DNA from: a virus
Virus genome (UHGV): UHGV-0110803
DNA length: 29,302 nt
Strand: one strand, 5' to 3'
The notes under the pieces were generated by a model. The model was not told the DNA's origin. It made no database searches and was given only the letters and a program-made list of their open reading frames with translations. Position numbers and translations under genes: made by a program. Positions 2,203-29,302 of the stretch are shown here, piece after piece (positions within the stretch are counted from its first letter, which is position 1; the number at the start of each line of letters is the position of its first letter).

Positions 2203-4824
2203 TTATCGTCCTGATTGCTGGCCGTTCTGGAAAATGTTAATCAGGTTGTCGCGCTGACTTTCTGCGCTGTATTCCTTAGACTGTCCGGGAGTATATTTCA
2301 CCGGAGTATCAATGAACTTGGTAATGCGGTTCCATACTGATCGGTTGGTTGTTCCCAGTTTCGCCAGATCGTTGAACGGCACCGTAATCGGGTTGCCGTC
2401 GGCACCGTTGACGATCAGCCCGTTGAGCATCAGGGTAAGTCCTGTTTCGTCGCTGTTGGTAACCCACTGCGCATTATCACGAATGCGGGAGATACTCTGC
2501 TCACGGTTGACCTCATCAGGTAGCCTTGGGTCACCAATAAGCGGCATAATCTGATCTGCTGACAGGTTTTTCAGATACGCATTGGCACCATCGTTAACGT
2601 CACGAATATCTACCCCTGCACGATTAGGTAGCCGCCAAGTGCCATTGGTCTGGTACTGCTCGCCGAGAAGGTCCTGATACGCCTGTTTTGCTGCATCAGA
2701 CGCCGACATTCCGCGCTGCATGTAGTTGTAGGTCAAGCGTTTTCCCTGCTCGTTATAAATAGTCCAGTTTTCAGCACCATTTCTCTGAGGAATAAGAGTT
2801 GAAGAAAAATCTTTAAATTGATCTGTCCACGATGAGTCTGCACTGTCTGCCTGGTTTTTATCCAAACCAGATCTCAAATCAGAAGTAGGTACATTCCGTA
2901 TTTGCCACAACGCATCTGCTGCCCGTTGGTTTTCTGTAGACATTACAACCTTTAAAGCTGGGAATGCTTTATTTTGCACCTGCCGCATCACCTGATCCGA
3001 GTATTTGCCGAACGACTGCGCCACCGACTGAATGGCCTTTACGCTAGATTCCTGCGTGTTGTCAATACGCTGCAGTACGTCGTTGACCATGGACTCCGGT
3101 AAAACTTTTTTGCTCATTATCCCCAGGCGGTCTTTTTCAGACTGTATGCGGGAAACTAGGTATTCACCAGATGAAGGGTCATTCAGGTACTGCTGGAATG
3201 CAGCCTGCACAACCGGAGAGTTTTGTTGCAGCCATGCCCCCGGATCCGCTTCCCGCGCCTTCAGTACCTGCCCAAGCTTGACCTTTGCCGATGCATAAAG
3301 CTCTGCTTTGTATTTAAAGTCAGAGTCGTTTTCCTGCGGTGCCATTGCCTGCACGGCGGCGGTACCTTGCTGGACGTTGCCCTGCATAATGGTCTGATAA
3401 ACAGGTTGTAGCGTCATTGCCTGCTGGTATTGCTGGAAGGTTTTTTCCATCTGCAGGCGCTCGGCAGGCGCTGCCTGAAGCGGCATAACGGCGGCCCATT
3501 CGTGCGCTGAAATAGGCGTCACCTGCTTACCGGCCTCAATTTTGGATAGGTCGTCCTGCATTCGACTCTGTAGCGCAACGCGACCGGCTGAAGCCTGCAT
3601 GTCGTACATGCCAGCAACCTTGCTCATCATCTGCGACTTTTTGTCCGGACTCATGGCGTTCCAGAATGGCTGTGCGATGAGGTTTTCCATCGTCGCAGAT
3701 CCAGGAATAGCTCCAGCACTGCCAGTTACTTTTGCCACATAATTGCGCGTCTCGTCGTATGGGATAGCTGCGGCAAACTGGGCGTTACTGACTTCGCCTG
3801 TGCGCGGATCGCCAATCTGTTTAATCCAGCCGTCAACCTTTCCTGGGCCAGCGTTATAGGCAGCTACTGCCAGAACCGGGTTATTGTCGTATTTCTTCAT
3901 CTGCGCGCCGAAATAAGCTTGCCCCAAGCGGGCATTATAGCGCGGGTCATTCAACCATTTATCTCGGTCCCACGGCACGCCAGCAAGGCGGGCAGCTTCG
4001 GGGCCAGTATCTTCCGTCACCTGCGCTACGCCAACAGCGCCTTTTGGCGACACCAGAGGTGTTCCGTCCTTTCCGTACTGATTTCCGCCACTCTCCTGCC
4101 AGATTATTGCAGAGAATAACTGCGCCTCACTCGGTGTATCGGTTACCTCAATCTTGCCGTTCGGACCCATCATCTGTTGATACATCGGCACATACCACGC
4201 CTCCGCCGCACCGTTCGCGGCATTCTCGCGCCACGAAACCCAGTTCTGTTCAATCTCTTCCTGACTCTGGCCGTGGGCTTCGCCGTAAGCGATGATGCTA
4301 TGATATGCCTTCAATCCTGCCTGGTTTGCCATTGTCGGGTTACGGAACTGCATCGATAGGTTTTTTAGTGTCGCATCCTGCATATCCGCCTCATACTGGC
4401 GAACCTGTCCTATTTCGTACCTCCCGGCCTGCGTAGTGAACTGAATGCGCTGCTGCTGCGCCTGCTGCATGAAAGCATTACGAGCCTGTTCATCCGGCAG
4501 CGACATAGCCAGTTGTTCGACCTGAGCATCAAACTGCTGCGTATACTCCTGACCTTTTCCAATAGCATTTTTCCCTTTCAGGTTAAGCAAACCTGTTTCA
4601 GGGTTATTCAGCAGATCGCTGCCTGTCTGACTGAGTTTAAGGGATGCCTCCTGAACCATAGCAACATTCTCTTTCTGCCTGGCTTCACCATATGCCACCG
4701 CATACTGATCTGCGACATTCGCCAGCACCTGACCTGCTTGAGGAACATCGAAGGTCTGAAAACCACCGGTTTGCACACCACGACTTTGCACCTGGCGGCC
4801 GGATGTAGTAGGAACAACAGGCAT
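2203..4824 (-). CDS. Internal virion protein with lytic transglycosylase (SLT) domain (873 aa)
   Basis: SLT signature IIWQESGGNQ ... AYNAGPGKV inside a large virion-module ORF. Confidence 0.75.
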   Translation of the reverse strand: MPVVPTTSGRQVQSRGVQTGGFQTFDVPQAGQVLANVADQYAVAYGEARQKENVAMVQEASLKLSQTGSDLLNNPETGLLNLKGKNAIGKGQEYTQQFDAQVEQLAMSLPDEQARNAFMQQAQQQRIQFTTQAGRYEIGQVRQYEADMQDATLKNLSMQFRNPTMANQAGLKAYHSIIAYGEAHGQSQEEIEQNWVSWRENAANGAAEAWYVPMYQQMMGPNGKIEVTDTPSEAQLFSAIIWQESGGNQYGKDGTPLVSPKGAVGVAQVTEDTGPEAARLAGVPWDRDKWLNDPRYNARLGQAYFGAQMKKYDNNPVLAVAAYNAGPGKVDGWIKQIGDPRTGEVSNAQFAAAIPYDETRNYVAKVTGSAGAIPGSATMENLIAQPFWNAMSPDKKSQMMSKVAGMYDMQASAGRVALQSRMQDDLSKIEAGKQVTPISAHEWAAVMPLQAAPAERLQMEKTFQQYQQAMTLQPVYQTIMQGNVQQGTAAVQAMAPQENDSDFKYKAELYASAKVKLGQVLKAREADPGAWLQQNSPVVQAAFQQYLNDPSSGEYLVSRIQSEKDRLGIMSKKVLPESMVNDVLQRIDNTQESSVKAIQSVAQSFGKYSDQVMRQVQNKAFPALKVVMSTENQRAADALWQIRNVPTSDLRSGLDKNQADSADSSWTDQFKDFSSTLIPQRNGAENWTIYNEQGKRLTYNYMQRGMSASDAAKQAYQDLLGEQYQTNGTWRLPNRAGVDIRDVNDGANAYLKNLSADQIMPLIGDPRLPDEVNREQSISRIRDNAQWVTNSDETGLTLMLNGLIVNGADGNPITVPFNDLAKLGTTNRSVWNRITKFIDTPVKYTPGQSKEYSAESQRDNLINIFQNGQQSGR

Positions 4825-5854: not shown

Positions 5855-8325
5855 CAGAATCCCCCAACAGTAAGGCGAGGAATAACGGCAAGAACAGACA
5901 GCGGCAACGGGTCAAGCTGACGGATTTTTACACGTCCGTTTTTGCCCCAGTTACTGTCCAGTTTCACTTCTACTTTTCCGGTAGCATCATCAACAGGATC
6001 ATCGTAGAACTCGAATTCACGCTGTGGATATTCGTACCATTTACCGCCGGGCGTAGTCGCCCAGATGCCGCGACTGGCATTCACAACCAGAGTAACGGAG
6101 GGGATCACCTGTTTTTTGTCCAGCAGCGTTTCCTGTCCGTTAATGTTGATATCCAGTGTTTCGAATTCAGCAGTTATTGGCAGGCCGATGTGCACTACAG
6201 CCCCCGGAGATTCCAGCGTGACGGCACCTCCGGAAACCACTTTCTGTGGTTCCACGTTCGCATCAGAGAGAATGTTTACGGTCTGACCTTCAAGATGAGA
6301 CAAGCCGCCAAATGCCCGGCGCGCCATCTGCCAGTTCGTGGTGGCCACATTCCTGAGGGATGGCGGGACGTTCCTGTTAGGACGAACCACTACAGCGGTA
6401 TTGCTGGTTACAGAAATAATGTCGCAACGTAATTCTTTTGACACTTCATCGCCAGTATCAGGATCAGTTCCGGCATAAGGGAACTGTAGTTGCGCACCGA
6501 CATCACTACTGGTGAAGTACGCACCACCAGAAACACTGATTGTATATTCCGCGCGGTAATCCCATTCACCAGAACCACCAGTGATGATCATCGTTCTGTC
6601 AGACGTATTTCTTCCATCATAGCTAAGGCCAGAATCAACAAAGAAAGCGTCTTCATCGCTGGTAAATAAACGGCTGGACAGTCTCTCGATGTATCTCACT
6701 GCTTGCCCGTTAACGGTTCGGTTAACGACGAAATACACCGCATCTTCATTGCCTTCGCTGATACTGCATGTGCTTTCATATTTTCCGGTACTGGACTGTG
6801 GTGCCCATGCAAAAACCTGCTGATCACGCAAATAGGTCATCACCAGTAATTTACCGTCATCACGAATGCAGAAGGCGCTGGAGTAAGGGACAATCGAGAA
6901 GCACCAGTCAACAATGCTGTGCTTCTGAAAAAGATGATTGGCAAGGATGGTCAGGTCGTTCCCCTGATAGCCGTCAACATCGAATGAGTAGGCCAGATCA
7001 CGGACAACGCTGCCTTTCTCCTGGACGAACAGAGCAATATTCGCCACAGCAATTGGTGGGACATTGCTCGAGCCATTTGATCCCTGAGAGCTGAATGCAA
7101 ATGATGATGGGGTTAACACTTTGTTCTGGTCGCCGGTGATGACGTACTCACCTCCGGAAGTCAGTGCCACCAGCGAACCGACATCAATCAGGTGGCGGAT
7201 CTCATTAACCTGACGCCCGGCATAGGTGTAGATAATTCTGTCGTCATCCTGCGTAGGATTGCTTTTGCCAAAATCCTTATAATCCCCGGTACGGCTGGCC
7301 CAGATAGTCTGAGGGAACGCAGTCGATGCGGCGAAGTAAAGACGTTGTTGATAATAAACAACAGTGCCAGGATAACCATTAACACTGTTCCAGGCATATT
7401 TAGCCCATTTATAGCTGGCATTATCCTCGCCAACGACCTGCGAAGGGATATAGGAAATCACCTCGGCAGTTGCAGTAGTTCCATTTGCAGCAGTGATACG
7501 GGCAATGCCAAAACCACTGTGCAGATATTCCCACTCAATGCCAGTATCATCATCACCGGATCCGCCCCAGCCATCCCATGATGTGCCTTCTGTATGCGAA
7601 GGGCGCAAAGTGCCTGTTTTGCCTGCTGTAACGGCGCGATAGTAGTTACTGTCTGCACGGCGAATATCGCCAATCGACGTACTCTTACTGGTTTCCCATA
7701 CCGGCACTGAATCCACTGCAGGCTGTTCCAGATAGAACAATTTGCCTACCTGCTCCGCGCCAAAAATAGAGGCGCTTGCTGTTAACGTAATTGTCCCGGT
7801 GCTGGCGCTGGCATAAACCGTCACTGACTCGTCAATATTGATATCTTCAAATGGCCCGTTCTTCGTTACCACATCAACCAGTTGCCAGTTGTCATGCGCA
7901 TAGCGGCGCAACTCTTTCGGCGGGTATGCCGGGTGAACCAGCGTAAGCACGTCGGCGCTTTGCGTAAATTTAATTCGGAACAGATCGGCTTCAGTATATG
8001 GCGTGGCAATTTCATAAATAACATTGCTGCTGTTCAGCACCAACGCACCATCTTTGATAACGCGCATGTACTGGTGCCCGAACTCCAGAGCATAGGTCTG
8101 AACCGTCGAGAACTGGAACGGGATCAGGCGGCATTTCCGATTTGGGTATTTGGCGGCACCGACAAAACGCGTACCAGGTCGATTCTCAACGCCGCCATAC
8201 TGCCGCACGATAAAGTTATCGCACTTGCGCAATGCCACCTGGTACTTCGCCATGTCGATACGACCGTACAACGACGGTCCAATCTCACCACCGGCAAAGC
8301 TGGGCTGGATCCAACTGATAGCCAT
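5854..8325 (-). CDS. Tail tubular protein B-like (nozzle), 823 aa
   Basis: Size, position after the adaptor gene and N-terminal pattern SFAGGEIGPSL resembling T7 gp12-type proteins (from memory, not searched). Confidence 0.6.
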   Translation of the reverse strand: MAISWIQPSFAGGEIGPSLYGRIDMAKYQVALRKCDNFIVRQYGGVENRPGTRFVGAAKYPNRKCRLIPFQFSTVQTYALEFGHQYMRVIKDGALVLNSSNVIYEIATPYTEADLFRIKFTQSADVLTLVHPAYPPKELRRYAHDNWQLVDVVTKNGPFEDINIDESVTVYASASTGTITLTASASIFGAEQVGKLFYLEQPAVDSVPVWETSKSTSIGDIRRADSNYYRAVTAGKTGTLRPSHTEGTSWDGWGGSGDDDTGIEWEYLHSGFGIARITAANGTTATAEVISYIPSQVVGEDNASYKWAKYAWNSVNGYPGTVVYYQQRLYFAASTAFPQTIWASRTGDYKDFGKSNPTQDDDRIIYTYAGRQVNEIRHLIDVGSLVALTSGGEYVITGDQNKVLTPSSFAFSSQGSNGSSNVPPIAVANIALFVQEKGSVVRDLAYSFDVDGYQGNDLTILANHLFQKHSIVDWCFSIVPYSSAFCIRDDGKLLVMTYLRDQQVFAWAPQSSTGKYESTCSISEGNEDAVYFVVNRTVNGQAVRYIERLSSRLFTSDEDAFFVDSGLSYDGRNTSDRTMIITGGSGEWDYRAEYTISVSGGAYFTSSDVGAQLQFPYAGTDPDTGDEVSKELRCDIISVTSNTAVVVRPNRNVPPSLRNVATTNWQMARRAFGGLSHLEGQTVNILSDANVEPQKVVSGGAVTLESPGAVVHIGLPITAEFETLDININGQETLLDKKQVIPSVTLVVNASRGIWATTPGGKWYEYPQREFEFYDDPVDDATGKVEVKLDSNWGKNGRVKIRQLDPLPLSVLAVIPRLTVGGF

Positions 8326-14099: not shown

Positions 14100-14136
14100 T
14101 TGACATTTAATGCGCGAATTATTACCTTTGAGGTAA
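14100..14136 (+). promoter_or_regulatory. Putative promoter region for the tRNA/moron cassette: TTGACA, AATTAT, then palindrome TTACCTTTGAGGTAA (14122-14136)
   Basis: TTGACA at 14100-14105; the decamer AATTATTACC is shared with the pL-like promoter; the -35 to -10 spacing is suboptimal (11 bp). Confidence 0.4.
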
Positions 14137-21269: not shown

Positions 21270-22070
21270 TTACTTGATAAATCCTGCCGCCTTTCCCCGC
21301 CTGTATTCCTCCATCAGCCACTGCGCCGGTGTTATTCCCCCAAGGGTGGCGGCGTTAGGCATGCACCCGAAACTTCGCCCTGGTGGATGGTAAACGTCTC
21401 TCCCTGTGTCCGGAGGTGTACTCATGGGCTCTCGCTTTGCCTGTATGCTGATCACCGGATCGGGTATCTGCTGTCCGGAAGCTACCTTTTTCGCCCAATC
21501 ATCGAGCAGCCTGCGCGCGTGTTTCTCAACCTCAATCTCGCTAAGCTGGCGCTGATACATTGCACGGCGGGTATCACATACGACCCAGTACATAACCGGA
21601 TGTCGCCACGGGAATCTTTCGGGACCACCAGGATATAAACTTTTTTCCTTGCTGTACCGGTGAAACTCCGCCATCACATCGTCAATGGTGACGCCAAGAA
21701 CCATCTTGCTGTCTTTACACCACTTGATGAATTGCCCTGGCGACGGCCAGAACGGAGACTCACTGGCGCGGGCGTGGCGCATACCAGCAGAAACCTGTTC
21801 ACGGGTTCGGATCCCCCCTTCGGCAAACGCAGCAATCCACTGCTGTTTTGCAGCAACTTCCTGCTCTGGCGTCTTCAGGTTGGTTACCACTGCCGCCGGA
21901 AACAGTTGTTTCAGCTGTTTGAAAAGGGCATCAACAAGCCTCTCTGCTGACATGTTCACCACGTTGTCATTGTTGGTGTACTGATGCTCATAACCTGACA
22001 TGCGAGAAAGGGCTTCTCCGTCACGGTTTTGTATCGCGGTAAAAACGTTGTTCACAAGAAATCCTCCCAT
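21270..22070 (-). CDS. Replication protein P-like (helicase loader), 266 aa
   Basis: Segment QQWIAAFAEGGIRTREQVSAGMRHARASESPFWPSPGQFIKWCKD closely parallels lambda P (recalled, not searched). Confidence 0.75.
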   Translation of the reverse strand: MGGFLVNNVFTAIQNRDGEALSRMSGYEHQYTNNDNVVNMSAERLVDALFKQLKQLFPAAVVTNLKTPEQEVAAKQQWIAAFAEGGIRTREQVSAGMRHARASESPFWPSPGQFIKWCKDSKMVLGVTIDDVMAEFHRYSKEKSLYPGGPERFPWRHPVMYWVVCDTRRAMYQRQLSEIEVEKHARRLLDDWAKKVASGQQIPDPVISIQAKREPMSTPPDTGRDVYHPPGRSFGCMPNAATLGGITPAQWLMEEYRRGKAAGFIK

Positions 22071-22867
22071 GCTTCAGGGCTGTTCCAGTGCGGAACGTTG
22101 TTATCAGGTAATGTTGATTGCTTCTGTCTGCTAATCTGCAGCCTCCTTGCCAGCTTCTGCTCCCACTGTGCCTGATGGTATGCCTTACCCTCAGCCATCC
22201 AGTAAATTCTGAACTCTGCAAGTTCCTGTGCCGTTGGCAGACTGTCCAGGTAGATCCCCTGCAATGAGCTTTTCCGAAGAAAGTCATCTGATGGTTGCCA
22301 TTGTTCATGCATGACAAATTTGCCTAATTGCCCTGGCCCACCAGGAGGAACAAAGTTATTCATCACGGCGTTGTTTGCGCCGGGGTCATGAGACACAGAA
22401 TCCCCGTTTTTTGTCCTGCTCTCCCTCTCTTGGTTAAATGACTGGTTATATGACTGGTTCTGGATCCCGTTTTTGGGATCATTCAACATCCCGTTTTTGG
22501 GATCATTCAACATCCCGTTTTTGGGTATATTCCCGTTTTCGGTAAAATTACCGTTTTCGGGTTCATTACCCCCTTCCCGGTTGCCTTTAATGTTCCCGTT
22601 TTTGGTTATATTAAGAGAGAAAACCCGCACTCTTTTTGTCGCTCCCTTTCTCTCTCCGGTATCTGAAATAAGCCCCATTTTCATGAGCGATATAAGCCCG
22701 GCCTGCACGGTTTTTTTATTCAGGCAAGTGTCTTTAACGAGGCGTTCTATGCTGGGGTAGCAGAGGTTATATTCATCGGCTCTGTCAGCCATCGAGAGCA
22801 GTATGAGCTTTAATGATGAGCTACCTGGATCTGTCTCCCAGGCCCAATCTGTTGCATGTCTGCTCAT
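22052..22867 (-). CDS. Replication initiator, O-like (N-terminal winged-HTH, internal iteron-encoded repeats), 271 aa
   Basis: N-terminal HTH-type segment, internal peptide repeats encoded by the DNA iterons, 19-nt overlap with the P-like gene. Confidence 0.7.
   Translation of the reverse strand: MSRHATDWAWETDPGSSSLKLILLSMADRADEYNLCYPSIERLVKDTCLNKKTVQAGLISLMKMGLISDTGERKGATKRVRVFSLNITKNGNIKGNREGGNEPENGNFTENGNIPKNGMLNDPKNGMLNDPKNGIQNQSYNQSFNQERESRTKNGDSVSHDPGANNAVMNNFVPPGGPGQLGKFVMHEQWQPSDDFLRKSSLQGIYLDSLPTAQELAEFRIYWMAEGKAYHQAQWEQKLARRLQISRQKQSTLPDNNVPHWNSPEAWEDFL
22464..22612. repeat. Iteron array (putative replication origin) inside the O-like gene
   Basis: ATCCCGTTTTTGGGATCATTCAAC twice in perfect tandem followed by four degenerate CCCGTTTT(T/C)GG units; flanked by AGAGAGAAA/TTTCTCTCT inverted repeats. 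Confidence 0.65.
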
Positions 22868-22882
22868 GATTAATCTCCGCTA

Positions 22883-23083
22883 TCAGCTTGAGTGTTGTGG
22901 GGAGGAATTAATCATGATCTGCTTAATCTCTGCCCTGATGCGACGGTTTGATTCCATGGTGCACTCAACACAGTGTCCGTTGTAAACCCAGCGTTCACTG
23001 TCATGTCCGTGCTTACATGGTTTTCCGGTGTAGTAGCGTTTAAGTCCGCGCTTTGCGGCATCAATACGTGTAATGATTTCCAT
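22883..23083 (-). CDS. Small Cys/His-containing protein at the cII-equivalent position (66 aa from ATG)
   Basis: C-x-H-x-H ... C-x-x-C pattern; track ORF carries an implausible N-terminal extension. Confidence 0.4.
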   Translation of the reverse strand: MEIITRIDAAKRGLKRYYTGKPCKHGHDSERWVYNGHCVECTMESNRRIRAEIKQIMINSSPQHSS

Positions 23084-23163
23084 GGTAAGCCCTGTTATTA
23101 GTATTGGGATTACGGTTATTTTGTGCTGACACAAAAAAAAGATCAACCATATTTGGTTTTTTA

Positions 23164-23178
23164 TTACCTTTGAGGTAC
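23164..23178. promoter_or_regulatory. Operator-like palindrome TTACCTTTGAGGTAC (one mismatch) just downstream of the tR1-like terminator
   Basis: 14 of 15 bp identical to the site at 14122-14136. Confidence 0.45.
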
Positions 23179-23184
23179 GAATAG

Positions 23185-23212
23185 ATATGAAAAGACCGCC
23201 GGATGGCGGTCT
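23185..23212 (-). terminator. tR1-like intrinsic terminator after the Cro-like gene (AGACCGCC-ATCC-GGCGGTCT then TTTTC on the minus strand)
   Basis: 8-bp GC stem plus U-tract about 20 nt after the stop codon. Confidence 0.55.
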
Positions 23213-23233
23213 ACAGAGGGTTGTGGCTGGATA

Positions 23234-23464
23234 TCATGAGTAGAAGAAGTATGCCAGTTCTGCTTTTGAGCGCAGCCATTGTCTTGATTTACAGGCTTTA
23301 AAAAGCCCATCCATCAATACATTACCTGGCATTTTGCGCTTACCTGTTAAGTGAGTCTGGATATAGTGACTCGTCGTTCCGGCTTCCTGTGCGAAGGCTT
23401 CACGCTCATCCGGAGTAAGTGCAAGCCAGTGCTTTTTGAAATCGAAATGTCCGTTATCGCTCAT
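23234..23464 (-). CDS. Cro-like HTH regulator (76 aa)
   Basis: HTH-like segment AFAQEAGTTSHYIQTHLTGKRK; divergent from the repressor gene across an operator cluster. Confidence 0.55.
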   Translation of the reverse strand: MSDNGHFDFKKHWLALTPDEREAFAQEAGTTSHYIQTHLTGKRKMPGNVLMDGLFKACKSRQWLRSKAELAYFFYS

Positions 23465-23500
23465 AGCTATTGCCTGATATTTATTTCAGATAATAAATAT

Positions 23501-23563
23501 TCACCCATAAGGTAACAAAAATCAAGGATAGTTACCCATGAGGTGCATTTACCTGTTGGGTAA
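23501..23563. promoter_or_regulatory. Operator cluster of three TTACC-N5-GGTAA-type palindromes between the divergent regulator genes
   Basis: TCACCCATAAGGTAA (23501-23515), TTACCCATGAGGTGC (23532-23546), TTACCTGTTGGGTAA (23549-23563). Confidence 0.6.
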
Positions 23564-23618
23564 TATTGCTTTAAATTGAATCATCTACTGATTCATATAT
23601 GAGGCGATTTTCCAGAAA

Positions 23619-24203
23619 ATGAAAAGTATCCAGGACGTCCGCAGGCAAAATCTCAACGACTTGATCGACCGTGAATTCAATGGTGTTCAGACGCGGATGG
23701 CAGAAAAACTTGGAACTCAGGCAAATCTGGTAAACCGCTGGGCTCTTGGCAAGAAGGTTATCGGCGACCAGGTTGCGCGAAAAATTGAAGCTGCCGCCAA
23801 TAAACCACGTAACTGGCTTGATATCGATCGCTCGCTTTCTCAGGAAGGTTTTCAGCCTGTCGGCCCAAGCGACATTGGTCAGCTGGCGGCTCACAACCTG
23901 GAACGCTGGATGAGCGAAAGCCGCGACCTTTCAACTCAGGGAAAACTTCACCGCGCATCCGGCGTCGCCCAGGTGACAATCAGCCGCCTGTTAAACAATG
24001 AGGTCAGCGTTTCCATTTCCACCCTGGAGAATGTTGCATCCGCATTCGGGCGTCACGGCTATGAATTACTGATTCACCCGCACGACCCTGCGACCATCAA
24101 CTATGACCGCTCGCGCTACGCATTGTTACCCGAAACCGAGAAAGCAAAGATCGAAAGTTACATTGAATTTGTCATCAACCAGAACGAAAAAAACAAACAA
24201 TAA
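23619..24203 (+). CDS. Prophage repressor candidate with two HTH motifs and no peptidase domain (194 aa)
   Basis: Two XRE-type HTH segments (QTRMAEKLGTQANLVNRW and ASGVAQVTISRLLNN); no Ala-Gly/Ser-Lys autocleavage signature seen. Confidence 0.6.
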   Translation: MKSIQDVRRQNLNDLIDREFNGVQTRMAEKLGTQANLVNRWALGKKVIGDQVARKIEAAANKPRNWLDIDRSLSQEGFQPVGPSDIGQLAAHNLERWMSESRDLSTQGKLHRASGVAQVTISRLLNNEVSVSISTLENVASAFGRHGYELLIHPHDPATINYDRSRYALLPETEKAKIESYIEFVINQNEKNKQ

Positions 24204-24223
24204 AATCATACTTTTCAGTAAGT

Positions 24224-24250
24224 AAGCCGCCTTCTGGCGGCTTTTTTATT
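24224..24250 (+). terminator. Intrinsic terminator after the repressor gene (AAGCCGCC-TTCT-GGCGGCTT then TTTTATT)
   Basis: 8-bp stem plus T-tract. Confidence 0.65.
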
Positions 24251-24260
24251 GCCTATACTG

Positions 24261-24337
24261 TTACCTAATAGGTAATTTTCTTAACTCATATCTATTGACA
24301 TCAAACCAAATACGCATAATTATTACCTCAACGGTAA
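24261..24337 (+). promoter_or_regulatory. pL-like promoter: palindrome TTACCTAATAGGTAA (24261-24275), -35 TTGACA (24295-24300), 17-bp spacer, -10 AATTAT fused to TTACCTCAACGGTAA (24323-24337)
   Basis: Consensus -35; two perfect palindromes 62 bp apart centre to centre. Confidence 0.6.
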
Positions 24338-24356
24338 CAGACCGAGGTAACAAGTT

Positions 24357-24509
24357 ATGCAGTGGAAAATCATCAACGGTTGGTACTGCGTTACTGCATG
24401 CGGATTCATGAGTTGGAAGTTTCGCACCTTACAGGAAGGCATTAAGTGGGCTTTCGTCAGCAAAGAAGCTCGCGATGTGGCCAACGATAACGAGATATGG
24501 GAGGGCTGA
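24357..24509 (+). CDS. Small Trp-rich protein (50 aa), first gene of the pL-like operon; not in the ORF track
   Basis: GAGGT RBS 8 nt before the ATG; frame translated by hand to TGA at 24507-24509. Confidence 0.35.
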   Translation: MQWKIINGWYCVTACGFMSWKFRTLQEGIKWAFVSKEARDVANDNEIWEG

Positions 24510-24511
24510 TA

Positions 24512-24811
24512 ATGAACGTTAATCAGCAGAAAAATCTTCAAAAAATCATGCTGGCATTCGACAAGGACTACCGCCTGTCAGAACAGCTATATGACCGACA
24601 AGTTGAACTGATTGAGAGCATCCGACTTCATCAACTGTCCTCAACTTTCGACGTTGTAACAGGCAAAGGCGTTCGTCAGGAAGTGCTGGAGGCTGCTAAA
24701 GACAGCCCTGAGTTCGAAGAACTGATGGATGCCTACCGGCGCGAGGCAATGGCAATTATAGCGCGCTGGGATCTGGCGGATCAGCTTGATGGGCAGAGGG
24801 ACGCGGCATGA
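24512..24811 (+). CDS. Hypothetical protein (99 aa from the internal ATG)
   Basis: GGAGGG RBS 7 nt before the ATG at 24512; 4-nt overlap with the exonuclease gene. Confidence 0.5.
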   Translation: MNVNQQKNLQKIMLAFDKDYRLSEQLYDRQVELIESIRLHQLSSTFDVVTGKGVRQEVLEAAKDSPEFEELMDAYRREAMAIIARWDLADQLDGQRDAA

Positions 24812-25629
24812 AACCGGGAATTTATTTCGACATCAGCAACGAAGACTACCACGCAGGTGACGGCGTGAGTAAGTCGCAACTGGACATGGTTGCCAAGAAT
24901 CCGGCGCTTCTTAAATGGGTTCAGGCAGCACCAGAAGACGAAGAGAAAAAGTCTGCACTGGATATGGGAACCGCATTGCACTGCCTGCTTCTGGAACCTG
25001 GAGAATTCGACAAACGCTTCATCGTTTCACCGAAATTCGATCGTCGGACAAAACAAGGTAAAGCTGACGAAGAAGCATTTCTTCGTGATGTGGCGGATAT
25101 GGGTATTACGGTACTTGATGTCGAGCAGTGGCGAAAACTGGAGCTGATGCGTGATAGCGCAATGGCTCATCCGGCGGCACGCTGGATGTTGGAAGCACCT
25201 GGTTACTGCGAAGCATCAATGTACTGGAACGATGAAGAGACGGGTGAGTTGTGCCGAATTCGTCCAGACAAATGGCTGAACGAGCACAACGTGATCGTCG
25301 ACGTGAAAAAGGTTGCAGATATGGACCGTTTTGCACGCCACATCGAGGAATTCCGCTACCACGTGCAGGACGCAATGTACCGCGAAGGCGCAATGAGGGT
25401 TACTGGTCAGCCGCATGGTTTTTTCTTTCTTGCCGTGAGCGAAAGCATTGATTGTGGTCGGTATCCGGTACGCGTGTTCGAGCTGGATGCGCCAGATGTC
25501 GATGCCGGGCACGCTCTGTTCCGCCGGGATCTGAATACCTATCACGAATGCCGCATCAACGATGAATGGGGCGGAGTGGAAATTATTAAACGCCCTGACT
25601 GGGCACGTAAACAGGATATGTACGTATGA
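24808..25629 (+). CDS. PD-(D/E)XK-type recombination exonuclease (exonuclease VIII/RecE C-terminal-like), 273 aa
   Basis: N-terminus MKPGIYFDISNEDYHAGDGVSKSQL typical of this family (from memory); coupled to the annealing-protein gene. Confidence 0.7.
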   Translation: MKPGIYFDISNEDYHAGDGVSKSQLDMVAKNPALLKWVQAAPEDEEKKSALDMGTALHCLLLEPGEFDKRFIVSPKFDRRTKQGKADEEAFLRDVADMGITVLDVEQWRKLELMRDSAMAHPAARWMLEAPGYCEASMYWNDEETGELCRIRPDKWLNEHNVIVDVKKVADMDRFARHIEEFRYHVQDAMYREGAMRVTGQPHGFFFLAVSESIDCGRYPVRVFELDAPDVDAGHALFRRDLNTYHECRINDEWGGVEIIKRPDWARKQDMYV

Positions 25630-26507
25630 GCAATGATATCGCAATCACATCACAACCAGGCGCAACTGTAGGCACTGCTGCGGCAATCTTCAGCCCCGAG
25701 GGCATGAATCAACTGGTGCGTTTCGCGGAGTTGATGTCACAAAGCAAAGCGACTGTACCGAAACATCTTGAAGGCAAACCTGCCGATTGCCTGGCGGTGA
25801 CCATGCAGGCGGCACAGTGGGGAATGAACCCTTTCGCCGTGGCGCAGAAAACGCATGTGGTAAACGGAACGTTAGGCTACGAAGCACAGTTGGTAAACGC
25901 GGTCGTATCCTCTTCCAGCCTGCTAGCGACACGCCTTAATTATCGCTGGAGCGGTGACTGGTCGAATGTTAACGGCAAAACAGATAAATCACCGAATCTG
26001 ACGGTAACTGTGTCAGCAGTTCTTAAAGGAGAAGTAGAACCACGTGAGCTTACCATCAGTATGGCGCAAGCCGGAGTGCGTAACTCTCCATTGTGGGAAC
26101 AGGATCCGCGCCAGCAACTTGCCTATCTTTGCACGAAACGATGGGCTCGCCTGCACGCTCCTGATGTACTTCTTGGTGTTTACACCCCTGACGAATTACA
26201 GGAAACGGCACCGCGCGTTGAGCGAGACATTACTCCGCAAACAACTACTGCTGCGGGAATGAACAGTCTGATCAACGCTAAACCAGTGAAAAAGCCTGAT
26301 GAGCAAACGCGTAAAGCGGATAGCCGTGATCCAGAAGAAATGCTGATGGCCTTTACCAGCGCAGCGATGAATTACAGCACTGTCTCCGAACTGGATAAGG
26401 CTTACAAATACATTGCACAAAAACTTTCAGATGATGACGAACTGCTGGCAAAAGCCACCGACGTTTACAGCGTTCGTCGGGAAGAATTAAACGAAACATC
26501 TATGTAA
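25626..26507 (+). CDS. Single-strand annealing protein, Bet/Red-beta-like (293 aa)
   Basis: Segments NPFAVAQ, PLWEQDPRQQL ... RWARLHA and ERDITP parallel lambda Bet (recalled, not searched). Confidence 0.75.
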   Translation: MSNDIAITSQPGATVGTAAAIFSPEGMNQLVRFAELMSQSKATVPKHLEGKPADCLAVTMQAAQWGMNPFAVAQKTHVVNGTLGYEAQLVNAVVSSSSLLATRLNYRWSGDWSNVNGKTDKSPNLTVTVSAVLKGEVEPRELTISMAQAGVRNSPLWEQDPRQQLAYLCTKRWARLHAPDVLLGVYTPDELQETAPRVERDITPQTTTAAGMNSLINAKPVKKPDEQTRKADSRDPEEMLMAFTSAAMNYSTVSELDKAYKYIAQKLSDDDELLAKATDVYSVRREELNETSM

Positions 26508-26556
26508 CCACCACCGCGGCGCCACGCGCGCCGCACTGCAACCAAGAGAGGTATTT

Positions 26557-26805
26557 ATGAAAGGTGCATTAGGTAAGAAGGAACTCCTGGCGGTGGTGCC
26601 ACTGTCATGGAGCACTATCGACCGTATGGAGCGCGCAGGTGAATTTCCTAAACGCTGGTATATCACTGACAAACGCTGCGCATGGAACCGTGACGAAGTT
26701 GAGCGTTGGCTTGATGAACGTCAGGCAGCAAGCCCGGCAGAGTTCCAGGGTAAAAAGCCTCCGGTTCAGCAACGTGTATATCGTCCTGTGAGCAACGCTG
26801 CATGA
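26557..26805 (+). CDS. AlpA/Xis-type excisionase or regulator (82 aa)
   Basis: Motif LLAVVPLSWSTIDRMERAGEFPK ... AWNRDEVERWL. Confidence 0.65.
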   Translation: MKGALGKKELLAVVPLSWSTIDRMERAGEFPKRWYITDKRCAWNRDEVERWLDERQAASPAEFQGKKPPVQQRVYRPVSNAA

Positions 26806-26914
26806 GTGTGCTTCTAAGGCACTGGAGCAAATGGTCAGGATGGTACTTATTCCTGGCCTCTGTTTCAGCATGGCTTTATCTGCTGGCATTAATTTTCAGA
26901 GAGGGTTGGATTAA

Positions 26915-27214
26915 GTGAGAAAGTTAAGCCGACTTGAAAAATATCACATGAACAAGGTTTCAATGCGCAGTCCGTCAAAGATTGTCGCCGTTACTCCTGC
27001 GGCGATAGAGATCGAAAAACGCGCGATTGAAAGAGAGAAAAAAGGGCAGTTCCGCATTGCCGCTCACCTTTGGCTTCAGTGTATGGATGTTGCTTCTGGT
27101 GATGTTGAGCGTGCAAGGATCGCGGTTCGCAGGGACCAATGTATCACAAAAGGTAACGGCCTTCGCCGTGGCGACTATAGCGGCATAGGATGTTGTGGGG
27201 TGGTTTATGACTAA
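26915..27214 (+). CDS. Small hypothetical protein, possibly ANR-like regulator (start uncertain: GTG at 26915 or ATG at 26963)
   Basis: Segment FRIAAHLWLQCMDVA ... ERARIAVRRDQC; assignment is tentative. Confidence 0.35.
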   Translation: MRKLSRLEKYHMNKVSMRSPSKIVAVTPAAIEIEKRAIEREKKGQFRIAAHLWLQCMDVASGDVERARIAVRRDQCITKGNGLRRGDYSGIGCCGVVYD

Positions 27215-27857
27215 GAAATACACACTAATCTATGCAGATCCACCCTGGGTATACCGGGACAAAGCCGCAGATGGTAATCGCGGTGCCGGTTTTAAATATC
27301 CGGTTATGAGTGTGCTGGATATCTGCCGCCTTCCTGTGTGGGATTTGGCCGATGAAAACTGTCTGTTGGCCATGTGGTGGGTGCCAACACAACCACTCGA
27401 AGCACTAAAAGTTGTTGAAGCCTGGGGATTCCGTCTGATGACCATGAAGGGCTTCACGTGGATAAAATGTGGTAGTCGACAACCAGATAAACTGGTTATG
27501 GGTATGGGACACATGACTCGCGCCAATAGTGAAGATTGCCTGTTTGCAGTAAAGGGAAAACTACCTACGCGCATTAATGCAGGGATCGTTCAGTCATTTA
27601 CCGCACCGCGGCTTGAGCACTCAAGAAAACCAGATATCGTTCGTGAAAAACTTGTGCAATTGTTAGGCGATGTTTCTCGCATTGAACTGTTCGCCCGCCA
27701 GACGTCTCATGGCTTCGATGTTTGGGGTAATCAGTGTGAAGACCCGGCAGTGCAACTACACCCCGGATACGCGTTGGATATTGGCGGATTAACAAATGCA
27801 TTCAGCAATTCTCCGCTGTCACCAACAGACAACCAGGGGCGGGAGCGTGCAGCATGA
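27207..27857 (+). CDS. MT-A70 family DNA N6-adenine methyltransferase (216 aa from the internal ATG)
   Basis: Catalytic DPPW motif in IYADPPWVY; 8-nt overlap with the upstream gene. Confidence 0.8.
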   Translation: MTKKYTLIYADPPWVYRDKAADGNRGAGFKYPVMSVLDICRLPVWDLADENCLLAMWWVPTQPLEALKVVEAWGFRLMTMKGFTWIKCGSRQPDKLVMGMGHMTRANSEDCLFAVKGKLPTRINAGIVQSFTAPRLEHSRKPDIVREKLVQLLGDVSRIELFARQTSHGFDVWGNQCEDPAVQLHPGYALDIGGLTNAFSNSPLSPTDNQGRERAA

Positions 27858-28048
27858 ACAGGGCATCACCAGCAGATTTAAGGAAATGCCTTGAAACTGC
27901 AAACATGCTTGCACACAGCGGGATCAGGTTTGTTCCAATTCCCGCTGTCACTGATGCTGAATTTGCAACACTGTCAGCAATATTCGCAGATAAAATTGAA
28001 TCACTGGCAGCAGAAGCCGAGATGGAAGAAAATCAGCAGAATAATTAA
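27854..28048 (+). CDS. Hypothetical small acidic protein (64 aa)
   Basis: 4-nt overlap with the methyltransferase gene; no recognisable domain. Confidence 0.4.
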   Translation: MNRASPADLRKCLETANMLAHSGIRFVPIPAVTDAEFATLSAIFADKIESLAAEAEMEENQQNN

Positions 28049-28051
28049 ACG

Positions 28052-29302
28052 TTATTCCCCCGCCATCCATTTCTCAAACTTCGACGGGGAGAACGGAATC
28101 AGATCCGTATGCTCCCCGTCAATCCAGGAATCAATCATATCGGCCCACTGCTGCAACATGTAGGCGCGCTGTCTGGCGTATTCCGCTTTGTTATATACGG
28201 CGCGCACACCTTTCTGCTCATGTGCCAGAGCCTTTTCAATCCAGTCTGAAGGATAACCAGCCTCATGCAATAACGTACTGGCTGTACGGCGCATATCGTG
28301 TACGGTGAAGTCCTGAATATGCTCACCATTTTCATTTATTATTTTCACCGTTCTGTCGATCAGAGAGTTCAGCGCGGCATTAGATAATGGCTTCCGGAAG
28401 TTGTAACGACCAGGAACCAGATATTCACTTCCACCAGCGCACATCTGCAGCCCGACCAATATATCCTGTGCCTGTTTAGGCAGGTAAATAACGTGCGCCC
28501 GGCTTCCCTTCATGCGGTCTGAAGGAATTGTCCATGTCCATTTTTTAAAATCTATTTCATCCCACGTTGCGTTGGTGAATTCGCCTTTACGAACCATAGT
28601 GATAAGCACCAGCTTTAAAGCCATTTTCATAGTGCCCATAGCACCAATGGCATCCAGCGTGCGGAAGAACAGGCCAATTTCTTCTGGTGTCAGTGTTCGC
28701 TCTCGTGGTTTAAATATGGCGATAGACGAAGGTTTAATGTCAGCCGCAGGATTAAACAAACCATGACCACGGTCATTGGCGTGACGGTATACGCTGCTGA
28801 TGATCTCCCTGGCCTGTACTGCTGTTGCCCGACCACCGCGTTCGACAATCCTGTCACACAAATCACGAACCATCGATGTGGTAATTTCAGTCATCATTTT
28901 GTTGCCAAGAACAGGAAGTATTTCACGGTCGATCACTGCCTGCTTCATTGCGCGGGTACTTTCAGCCAGGATGACGTGTTTCATATAACTGGCGGTATGT
29001 ACCGCAAACGTCTCGGCACCACGAATCTTTTTGATACCGTCACGTTTAGCCGCAGCCGGCGACTGGCCTGCTTTAAGCAGCTTCTTTGCAGCAATCAGTT
29101 CTTCTCGCGCTTCTGCCAGGCTGATACCGTCACGCCCATACTGCCCGATTACCAGTGTTTCGCGGCGACCGTTGATACGGTAGTCATAACGAAACGAGAC
29201 CGTGCCTGACGTAAGCACAGCGACATACAGCCCGTCACGATCGGAGACCTTGTACAGTTTGTCCTGCGGCTTGAGGTTTTTTAATTTTGTATCGGTAAGC
29301 AC
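28052..29302 (-). CDS. int: Tyrosine integrase (P4-like family); N-terminus at or just beyond the window edge
   Basis: N-terminal LTDTKLKNLKPQDK arm-binding pattern; catalytic-region motifs HDMRRTAST and VRAVYNKAEY; the ORF reaches position 29302. Confidence 0.9.
   Translation of the reverse strand: MLTDTKLKNLKPQDKLYKVSDRDGLYVAVLTSGTVSFRYDYRINGRRETLVIGQYGRDGISLAEAREELIAAKKLLKAGQSPAAAKRDGIKKIRGAETFAVHTASYMKHVILAESTRAMKQAVIDREILPVLGNKMMTEITTSMVRDLCDRIVERGGRATAVQAREIISSVYRHANDRGHGLFNPAADIKPSSIAIFKPRERTLTPEEIGLFFRTLDAIGAMGTMKMALKLVLITMVRKGEFTNATWDEIDFKKWTWTIPSDRMKGSRAHVIYLPKQAQDILVGLQMCAGGSEYLVPGRYNFRKPLSNAALNSLIDRTVKIINENGEHIQDFTVHDMRRTASTLLHEAGYPSDWIEKALAHEQKGVRAVYNKAEYARQRAYMLQQWADMIDSWIDGEHTDLIPFSPSKFEKWMAGE

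Follow-up and report, generated by a model that had tools for sequence, protein, structure and literature searches.

The genome of virus UHGV-0110803 (29,302 nucleotides, hereafter the window) carries at the start of its early-left operon two small plus-strand genes, at positions 24357..24509 and 24512..24811, which encode proteins of 50 and 99 amino acids (aa), respectively. The 99-aa protein is very probably a homolog of lambda Gam, as judged from sequence profiles and a predicted fold, and the evidence on the whole favors an action like that of Gam, with RecBCD as its likely target. Lambda Gam, an acidic helical dimer, blocks the DNA binding, nuclease and helicase activities of the host DNA-end nuclease RecBCD by occupying its DNA-entry site as a DNA mimic, and is the accessory factor of the lambda Red recombination system. 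The initial annotation of this DNA had placed neither small protein in a recognized family. For the 99-aa protein this has been superseded, as profile-profile comparison, the predicted fold and the gene context all lead to lambda Gam, and homology to a known recombination accessory factor explains this half of the observation. The suggestion that genes in this position are host-directed, with anti-RecBCD functions among those named, agrees with where the evidence leads for the 99-aa protein. The Kil-type idea continues to be a matter of position. Both genes belong to existing unannotated families (phrog_898 and phrog_856) and are hypothetical in RefSeq, so that neither is new as a gene.

Relationship of the 99-aa protein to lambda Gam

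The idea of a relationship to lambda Gam came first, from where the gene is located, and was then borne out by the tests. The 99-aa family is small. A word-index search found 53 proteins, all at least 74% identical. With HMMER, run in full over 1.8 billion representatives, no more than 32 proteins were recovered, none of which connects the family to a larger one. These representatives were combined with phage loci into an alignment, A3, that extends down to 31% identity. The comparison of A3 with A4, an alignment of 24 Gam proteins, using hhalign gave a probability of 88%, a P value of 3.1e-6 and a score of 36.5 over 55 co-linear columns. The controls, comprised of 360 column-shuffled alignments and one reversed alignment, reached at most a score of 21.9 and a probability of 12%. 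Hidden Markov model (HMM) searches in both directions between the 99-aa family and Gam scored above all 20,000 composition-matched shuffles. The best single-stretch match of the A3 profile among all Protein Data Bank (PDB) sequences is Gam (5mbv_A and 2uuz_A, expectation value (E) of 0.18-0.2), with residues 31-86 matching residues 33-90 of GamS. One member of the family, P0086, matches the Pfam family Gam, PF06064, with an E of 0.0042 and 17.7 bits (residues 31-94 against positions 33-96 of the 98 in the profile), which is the best Pfam E-value of any family among 19 members. Furthermore, one member matches phrog_259, 'gam-like host nuclease inhibitor', with an E of 0.016.

AlphaFold2, run without templates on a deeper alignment, predicts the structure of the 99-aa protein with a mean local confidence (pLDDT) of 92.2 and a predicted template modeling score (pTM) of 0.77. 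The predicted fold superposes onto lambda Gam (GamS) at 1.4 Å over 76 residues. The model is all-helical and its length of 99 aa compares to 98 aa in GamS, in keeping with the GamS fold (helical, about 98 aa). Both families are acidic, with an isoelectric point of 4.7 and a net charge of -6 for the 99-aa family and of 4.8 and -10 for the Gam family. A Foldseek search against BFVD gave two good but unnamed matches.

The best-conserved motif shared by the two families is D/E64-x-x-E67-F68-x-E70, which is aligned with D67, E71, F72 and E74 of GamS. Three of these GamS residues, D67, E71 and E74, form ion pairs with RecB K268, K288 and R297, respectively (PMC9836394, Table 1). Their counterparts in the 99-aa family are acidic in 16 (D/E64), 19 (E67) and 18 (E70) of the 19 members. 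The conserved Gam residues G56, F72 and R81 correspond to G53, F/Y68 and R77, and GamS D33 adjoins the invariant E32. Altogether, six RecBCD-contact residues are in or next to the aligned region; four more, located in the N-terminal helix, cannot be aligned.

The 99-aa gene runs from an ATG at 24512 to a TGA ending at 24811, and its product (phiV10 p38, epsilon15 gp36) matches phrog_856 with an E of 1.5e-55. The GGAGGG ribosome-binding site (RBS), read from the sequence at 24500..24505, lies inside the end of the 50-aa gene, 6 nucleotides upstream of the ATG, and bears out the strong RBS noted initially. A mechanically called open reading frame (ORF) of the second gene begins at ATG 24497 (104 aa); all homologs begin at the equivalent of 24512, with MN(V/I)QQ or with GTG. 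The two small genes share a GTGA overlap in the relatives from Klebsiella and Enterobacter. Among the papers searched, none gives a function to epsilon15 gp36 and gp37 or to phiV10 p38 and p39.

Gene context of the 99-aa gene

Like gam in lambda and gamL in phi80, the 99-aa gene is positioned directly upstream of an exonuclease and an annealase gene in an early-left operon, and its stop overlaps the exonuclease start (ATGA). The gene keeps this position whether the nuclease is RecE-like or of the YqaJ type. A lambdoid/Rac-like phage (locus L022) has the order KilR, Gam-like gene, DUF3799 exonuclease and RecT, and the Gam-like family thus extends beyond Uetakevirus-type genomes. That locus (L022:3351-3924) has an S24-type repressor and YdaS/YdaT genes, and its Gam-like gene is preceded by a gene for a 126-aa protein without a family match and by the KilR-family gene.

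In some relatives, though not in the window, a gene for a coiled-coil protein of 337-344 aa that is homologous to phi80 Agt/Mog is inserted after the 50-aa gene and directly upstream of the 99-aa gene. It occurs in phiv142-3 (L010:1459-2493), in several E. coli prophages and in a metagenomic locus (L021:2980-3993); its positions in loci L012 and L013 are 1459-2493 and 2816-3850, respectively. The identities to phi80 Agt/Mog are 55% and 45% (E of 2e-97 and 3e-53). The inserted gene replaces the last residues of the 50-aa protein. The RefSeq record of phi80 describes Agt/Mog as 'modifier of Gam, anti-toxin for Gam' and has it directly upstream of gamL, rec and exo; these statements on Mog and GamL are taken from the record notes and from PMC12315714.

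Between the Gam-like and exonuclease genes there is an insertion hotspot, occupied by unrelated small genes in three lineages. These encode a 45-aa CxxC...CxxC zinc-ribbon protein in Enterobacter phage Tyrion (gp37, L003:3093-3230), an 84-aa protein without a family match in BUCT711 (L005:2944-3198) and a 68-aa protein labeled as MarR family in enterotoxigenic E. coli (ETEC) H10407 (L020:909-1115).

Several results weigh against the relationship to Gam. The 99-aa protein of the window has no match in Pfam (E up to 1), in NCBIfam or among the annotated PHROGs. No score in the family passes a curated threshold, the best Pfam score being 17.7 bits compared to a gathering cut-off of 25 bits. The N-terminal third of the protein does not align with Gam, in which the N-terminal helix fills the single-strand channel of RecB (PMC5218532). 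Two of the six acidic residues that contact RecBCD, GamS E78 and E85, are not conserved and are replaced by Ala or Gly, and the net charge of the family is weaker than that of Gam. No similarity to phi80 GamL was detected by hhalign (probability of 0.5%). AlphaFold saw 2UUZ in training, so its model is not fully independent of the sequence signal. Finally, the Mog-like family is widespread in early-left operons (163 phage records) and is also found next to cIII; thus a Mog neighbor supports the assignment, but is not specific to Gam.

Function of the 99-aa protein and alternative explanations

A protein that acts like Gam would dimerize and bind to the DNA-entry site of RecBCD as a DNA mimic. 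With RecBCD blocked, the linear ends of phage DNA would be protected both upon injection and during replication, and would be left to the exonuclease and annealase of the phage itself, to the benefit of its own recombination. We consider that the 99-aa protein probably inhibits RecBCD. The main alternative is that the protein has the Gam fold but acts on something else. Candidates are a different DNA-end enzyme (for example SbcCD), a nuclease or sensor of host defense, and the RecE-like exonuclease or RecT of the phage itself, to which the protein would be a loading or regulatory partner. The 30 N-terminal residues, the part that enters the RecB channel in Gam, are unrelated in sequence, the two acidic contacts mentioned above have been lost, and phi80 GamL demonstrates how widely Gam-type proteins diverge (PMC12315714). 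The overlap of the 99-aa stop with the exonuclease start suggests co-production. However, the element that is best conserved between the families is precisely the D-x-x-EF-x-E motif that contacts the RecB arm. Furthermore, the gene stays put when the RecE-like exonuclease is exchanged for a YqaJ-type one and is separated from the exonuclease by inserted genes in three lineages, which argues against a specific partnership with one nuclease. Another target is regarded as unlikely.

It is very unlikely that the resemblance to Gam is a coincidence of small, acidic, helical proteins and that the function is unrelated. Individual sequence scores do fall short of the curated thresholds, and a first, low-confidence model of the protein matched only generic helical hairpins. 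Nevertheless, three independent lines, namely the profiles in both directions, the fold and the synteny, converge on Gam, and the shuffle and reversal controls lie far below the Gam score.

Four Chi octamers (GCTGGTGG) are present in the window, at 7167, 10635, 15234 and 28431, all on the minus strand, compared to 1.1 expected. Four were reached in 3 of 100 shuffles, and the excess is too weak to bear on the RecBCD strategy of the phage.

Comparison with known RecBCD inhibitors

The 99-aa protein and lambda Gam (GamS, PF06064; PDB 2UUZ and 5MBV) are alike in size (~98 aa), all-helical structure and acidity. They share G53, the D/E-x-x-EF-x-E motif and R77 (numbering of the 99-aa protein). At ~18-22%, however, their identity is below what the Pfam threshold detects, the N-terminal helices are unrelated in sequence, and no long (GamL-type) isoform is evident for the 99-aa protein. 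The partners also differ, as the 99-aa protein is paired with a RecE-like exonuclease and RecT, but lambda Gam with Exo and Beta. The 93-aa GamL of phi80 is likewise a divergent Gam-type protein encoded upstream of rec and exo. P22 Abc2, T7 gp5.9 and Mu Gam are also small early phage proteins that neutralize RecBCD, but have unrelated folds and mechanisms (PMC9836394, PMC12315714); none of the three is among the PHROG, Pfam or PDB search matches of the 99-aa family. A recent survey lists four anti-RecBCD types in lambdoid phages, namely Gam, GamL, Abc2 and MuGam (PMC12315714). The 99-aa protein is best described as a further, unrecognized sequence type of the Gam fold in Uetakevirus-type phages.

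The assignment is useful for annotation, although a specialist would not be surprised by it. The 99-aa protein has no name in Pfam, NCBIfam, PHROGs or RefSeq, and this group is therefore probably miscounted in surveys that class phages as being without an anti-RecBCD function. If the protein is a Gam-type inhibitor, the phage should be sensitive to host systems acting as guards of RecBCD, e.g. retron Ec48 and perhaps Gabija, and killing by quinolones should be potentiated. The adjacent Gam-like, RecE-like exonuclease and RecT genes would make a self-contained recombineering cassette.

The 50-aa gene

By its sequence conservation, the 50-aa ORF is a real, strongly constrained coding gene and the first to be made from the operon. 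It extends from an ATG at 24357 to a TGA at 24507-24509. A bare ORF of this size is unremarkable, because 94 ORFs of at least 30 aa overlap positions 22000-29302. The gene is recognized instead by its family match, the conserved RBS and start codon, a low ratio of nonsynonymous to synonymous changes (pN/pS) in its own frame, and a stop codon that always abuts or overlaps the start of the next gene. The Trp-rich product (phiV10 p39, epsilon15 gp37) matches phrog_898 over its full length with an E of 1.9e-38. The RBS, read from the sequence, is a GAGGT at 24344..24348, of which the GAGG (24344-24347) is positioned 9 nucleotides before the ATG. The GAGGT is conserved in 9 of the 9 relatives compared, and together with the ATG is kept in E. 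coli, Salmonella, Klebsiella and Enterobacter relatives. The ORF was found in every Uetakevirus relative examined, and the 28 homologs of the protein are all from Enterobacteriaceae. In seven divergent loci the own-frame pN/pS is 0.15 for codons 1-26 and 0.60 for codons 27-49, the remaining five frames over codons 1-26 have values of 0.41-7.3, and 13 of the 22 variable sites in these codons are third positions.

The initial annotation had described this ORF as having a good RBS right after the promoter, in agreement with the conserved GAGGT, and as missing from the ORF track; its 50 aa are indeed below the 60-aa default cut-off of that listing. Elsewhere, its annotation is inconsistent. The phiV10 p39/p38 and epsilon15 gp37/gp36 pairs and their RefSeq E. 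coli counterparts are called 'hypothetical protein', phrog_898 and phrog_856 are families of unknown function, RefSeq omits the 50-aa gene in E. coli PEC399, and Tyrion annotates an antisense ORF in its place.

This antisense ORF (gp39 in Tyrion) is a 72-aa frame that covers the 50-aa gene on the minus strand, 24323-24541 in the window. The equivalent stop-free stretch is open for 53-89 codons in all relatives, with a pN/pS of 0.41-0.60, and the first 45 nucleotides of the forward ORF are highly conserved. It might thus be supposed that the 50-aa ORF is untranslated and that its conservation is due to the antisense ORF, as the Tyrion annotators chose, or to an RNA or DNA element at the 5' end of the transcript. 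This is extremely improbable, considering that the forward frame has the lowest pN/pS and that variation in codons 1-26 falls mostly on third positions. The forward RBS, ATG and stop are, as described above, tied to their neighbors and conserved, whereas the antisense ORF begins with TTG and has no evident RBS. Its low ratio is the expected by-product of forward coding, being that of the mirror frame of a coding region, and the antisense ORF was rejected as the gene.

The 25 N-terminal residues of the 50-aa protein (MQWKIINGWYCVTACGLMSWKFRTL) are near-invariant and follow the pattern MQWK..G.Y.VT.CGLMSWKF, whereas the C-terminal half exists in two versions. A more distant homolog at locus L021 reads MQWKFSEGFYLVTICGLMSWKF. 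A C-x3-C pair was considered as a metal site and rejected; the first Cys is Leu in the L021 homolog and is therefore dispensable. A transmembrane segment is also unlikely, as the hydrophobic stretch is estimated from the sequence to be short and only mildly hydrophobic.

Possible function of the 50-aa protein

Profile searches gave no match of the 50-aa protein in Pfam, NCBIfam, the PDB or the annotated PHROGs, and the initial view that it belongs to no recognized family has held through these searches and through targeted comparisons with Kil, KilR and CIII. By its position the protein would be a host-directed early peptide in the role that Kil and KilR fill directly upstream of gam-type genes elsewhere. 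Lambda Kil (47 aa), phi80 Kil (69 aa) and the Rac-type KilR are likewise small early-left proteins encoded just upstream of a gam-type gene, and the KilR gene of locus L022 sits in the exact slot of the 50-aa gene. Proteins of the Kil/KilR kind inhibit cell division; they prevent the FtsZ ring from forming, so that cells expressing them filament. Lambda, phi80 and L022 all have unrelated small proteins in this slot, and the best positional guess, although a tentative one, is therefore a Kil-like, host-directed role. Against it, the likeness does not extend to the sequence. The hhalign probabilities for lambda Kil (PF06301), phi80 Kil and KilR (PF27398) are 0.16%, 0.23% and 0.45%, respectively, and a Pfam scan of 19 members of the family gave neither a Kil or KilR match nor a Lambda_CIII match. 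With all probabilities at or below 0.5%, an identification as Kil or KilR by sequence was rejected.

The 50-aa protein could instead be an inhibitor of the host FtsH protease of the CIII type, favoring lysogeny. It is similar to CIII in length (50 compared to 43-54 aa; lambda CIII has 54 aa), and its gene is in an early-left operon of the same class. Some co-linear likeness can be seen between INGWYCVTAC and the IAGWPCVGC of a Yersinia phage CIII, and between R-x-L-x-E-G-x-K and the R-K-L-R-D-G-W-K of lambda CIII. The motif resemblance is weak, however, and has no statistical support: the hhalign comparison with CIII gave a probability of 2% and a P value of 0.025 over 26 co-linear columns, and 8 of 200 column shuffles equaled the score. 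The empirical p of ~0.04 before correction is not significant after four targeted comparisons. Moreover, none of the family members has a Pfam Lambda_CIII match, and a CII-type partner was not identified in the window. We treat the resemblance to CIII as a lead rather than a finding, and regard a CIII-type function as quite unlikely.

It is also conceivable, with a confidence no higher than that in the Kil-like role, that the protein is a new kind of small early effector, the N-terminal half of which binds a conserved host target outside the known Kil, CIII and anti-defense families. If so, a new effector would be the first product made after derepression in a prophage family present in ~10% of complete E. 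coli genomes. What novelty is left in this region lies in the 50-aa peptide, which is a compact, well-defined target in the search for a new host-directed function.

Phage identity and control of the operon

Nucleotide identity places the window among the epsilon15/phiV10-type (Uetakevirus) temperate phages of E. coli. Positions 23200-26600 are 98.6% identical to Escherichia phage vB_EcoP_PAS61 and 95-98% identical to ZX5, TL-2011b and phiV10, all of which are temperate podophages of the genus Uetakevirus (epsilon15 group). Positions 24200-24900 were found in 559 of 5,426 complete E. coli genomes. The Gam-like family is also present in Salmonella, Klebsiella, Enterobacter and Citrobacter prophages.

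It is in this region that the early-left (pL-type) operon of the phage begins. After the 50-aa and 99-aa genes come, in order, those of a RecE-like exonuclease, RecT, an AlpA-like excisionase, PerC and a methylase. The PD-(D/E)XK exonuclease gene is at 24808..25629 on the plus strand (Pfam DUF3799, 1.7e-21; phrog_412 exonuclease VIII, 5e-126). It is overlapped at its end by the gene of the RecT single-strand annealing protein, at 25626..26507 on the plus strand (Pfam RecT, 2.6e-31; phrog_561, 2.8e-145).

Upstream of the operon and co-directional with it, as lambda cI is relative to pL, is the gene of a prophage repressor with two helix-turn-helix (HTH) domains (23619..24203, plus strand; Pfam HTH_3, 1.2e-9), a homolog of phiV10 p40 and epsilon15 gp38. 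Overexpression of the ZX5 homolog has demonstrated its repressor function (PMC9782041). The repressor transcript ends at an intrinsic terminator at 24224..24251 (plus strand), which has an 8-bp stem with 6 GC pairs (24224-24243) followed by a T run; a terminator is annotated in phiV10. The predicted sigma-70 promoter of the operon follows at 24295..24323 (plus strand) and consists of TTGACA (24295-24300), a 17-nucleotide spacer and AATTAT (24318-24323). It matches the consensus at 10 of 12 positions, on which the prediction is based, and is the best promoter-like site within 23150-24900.

Two perfect TTACC-N5-GGTAA palindromes flank the promoter. One, TTACCTAATAGGTAA (24261..24275), is located upstream of the -35 hexamer; the other, TTACCTCAACGGTAA (24323..24337), overlaps the end of the -10 hexamer and the expected transcription start and is kept in the upstream regions of phiV10, Tyrion and BUCT554. 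The window contains 10 such palindromes compared to 0.5 expected, and 10 were reached in no shuffle. The epsilon15 record annotates repressor sites at places equivalent to both palindromes. An operator-overlapped, pL-like promoter ahead of the 50-aa ORF, as originally proposed, is thus well founded, and 'pL-like' is apt because the layout matches that of lambda cI, terminator, oL/pL and first early gene. Release of the repressor from these operators would let the promoter transcribe the entire operon.

The other eight palindromes, of 15 nucleotides each, are at 14122, 17313, 17331, 21156, 21218, 23164, 23501 and 23549. They lie outside the pL region, and some form pairs 18-62 nucleotides apart that are far from the immunity region. 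This suggests that the repressor controls several further promoters, e.g. those of antirepressor or late genes.

The organization of the recombination genes varies among relatives. In the annotation of phiV10, p37 (L001:4609-6369) is a fused RecE-RecT protein of 586 aa, whereas positions 24808-26507 of the window are two ORFs with an ATGA overlap. In Salmonella phage SPN1S an HNH endonuclease gene (L007:3789-4199) is situated between the exonuclease and RecT genes.

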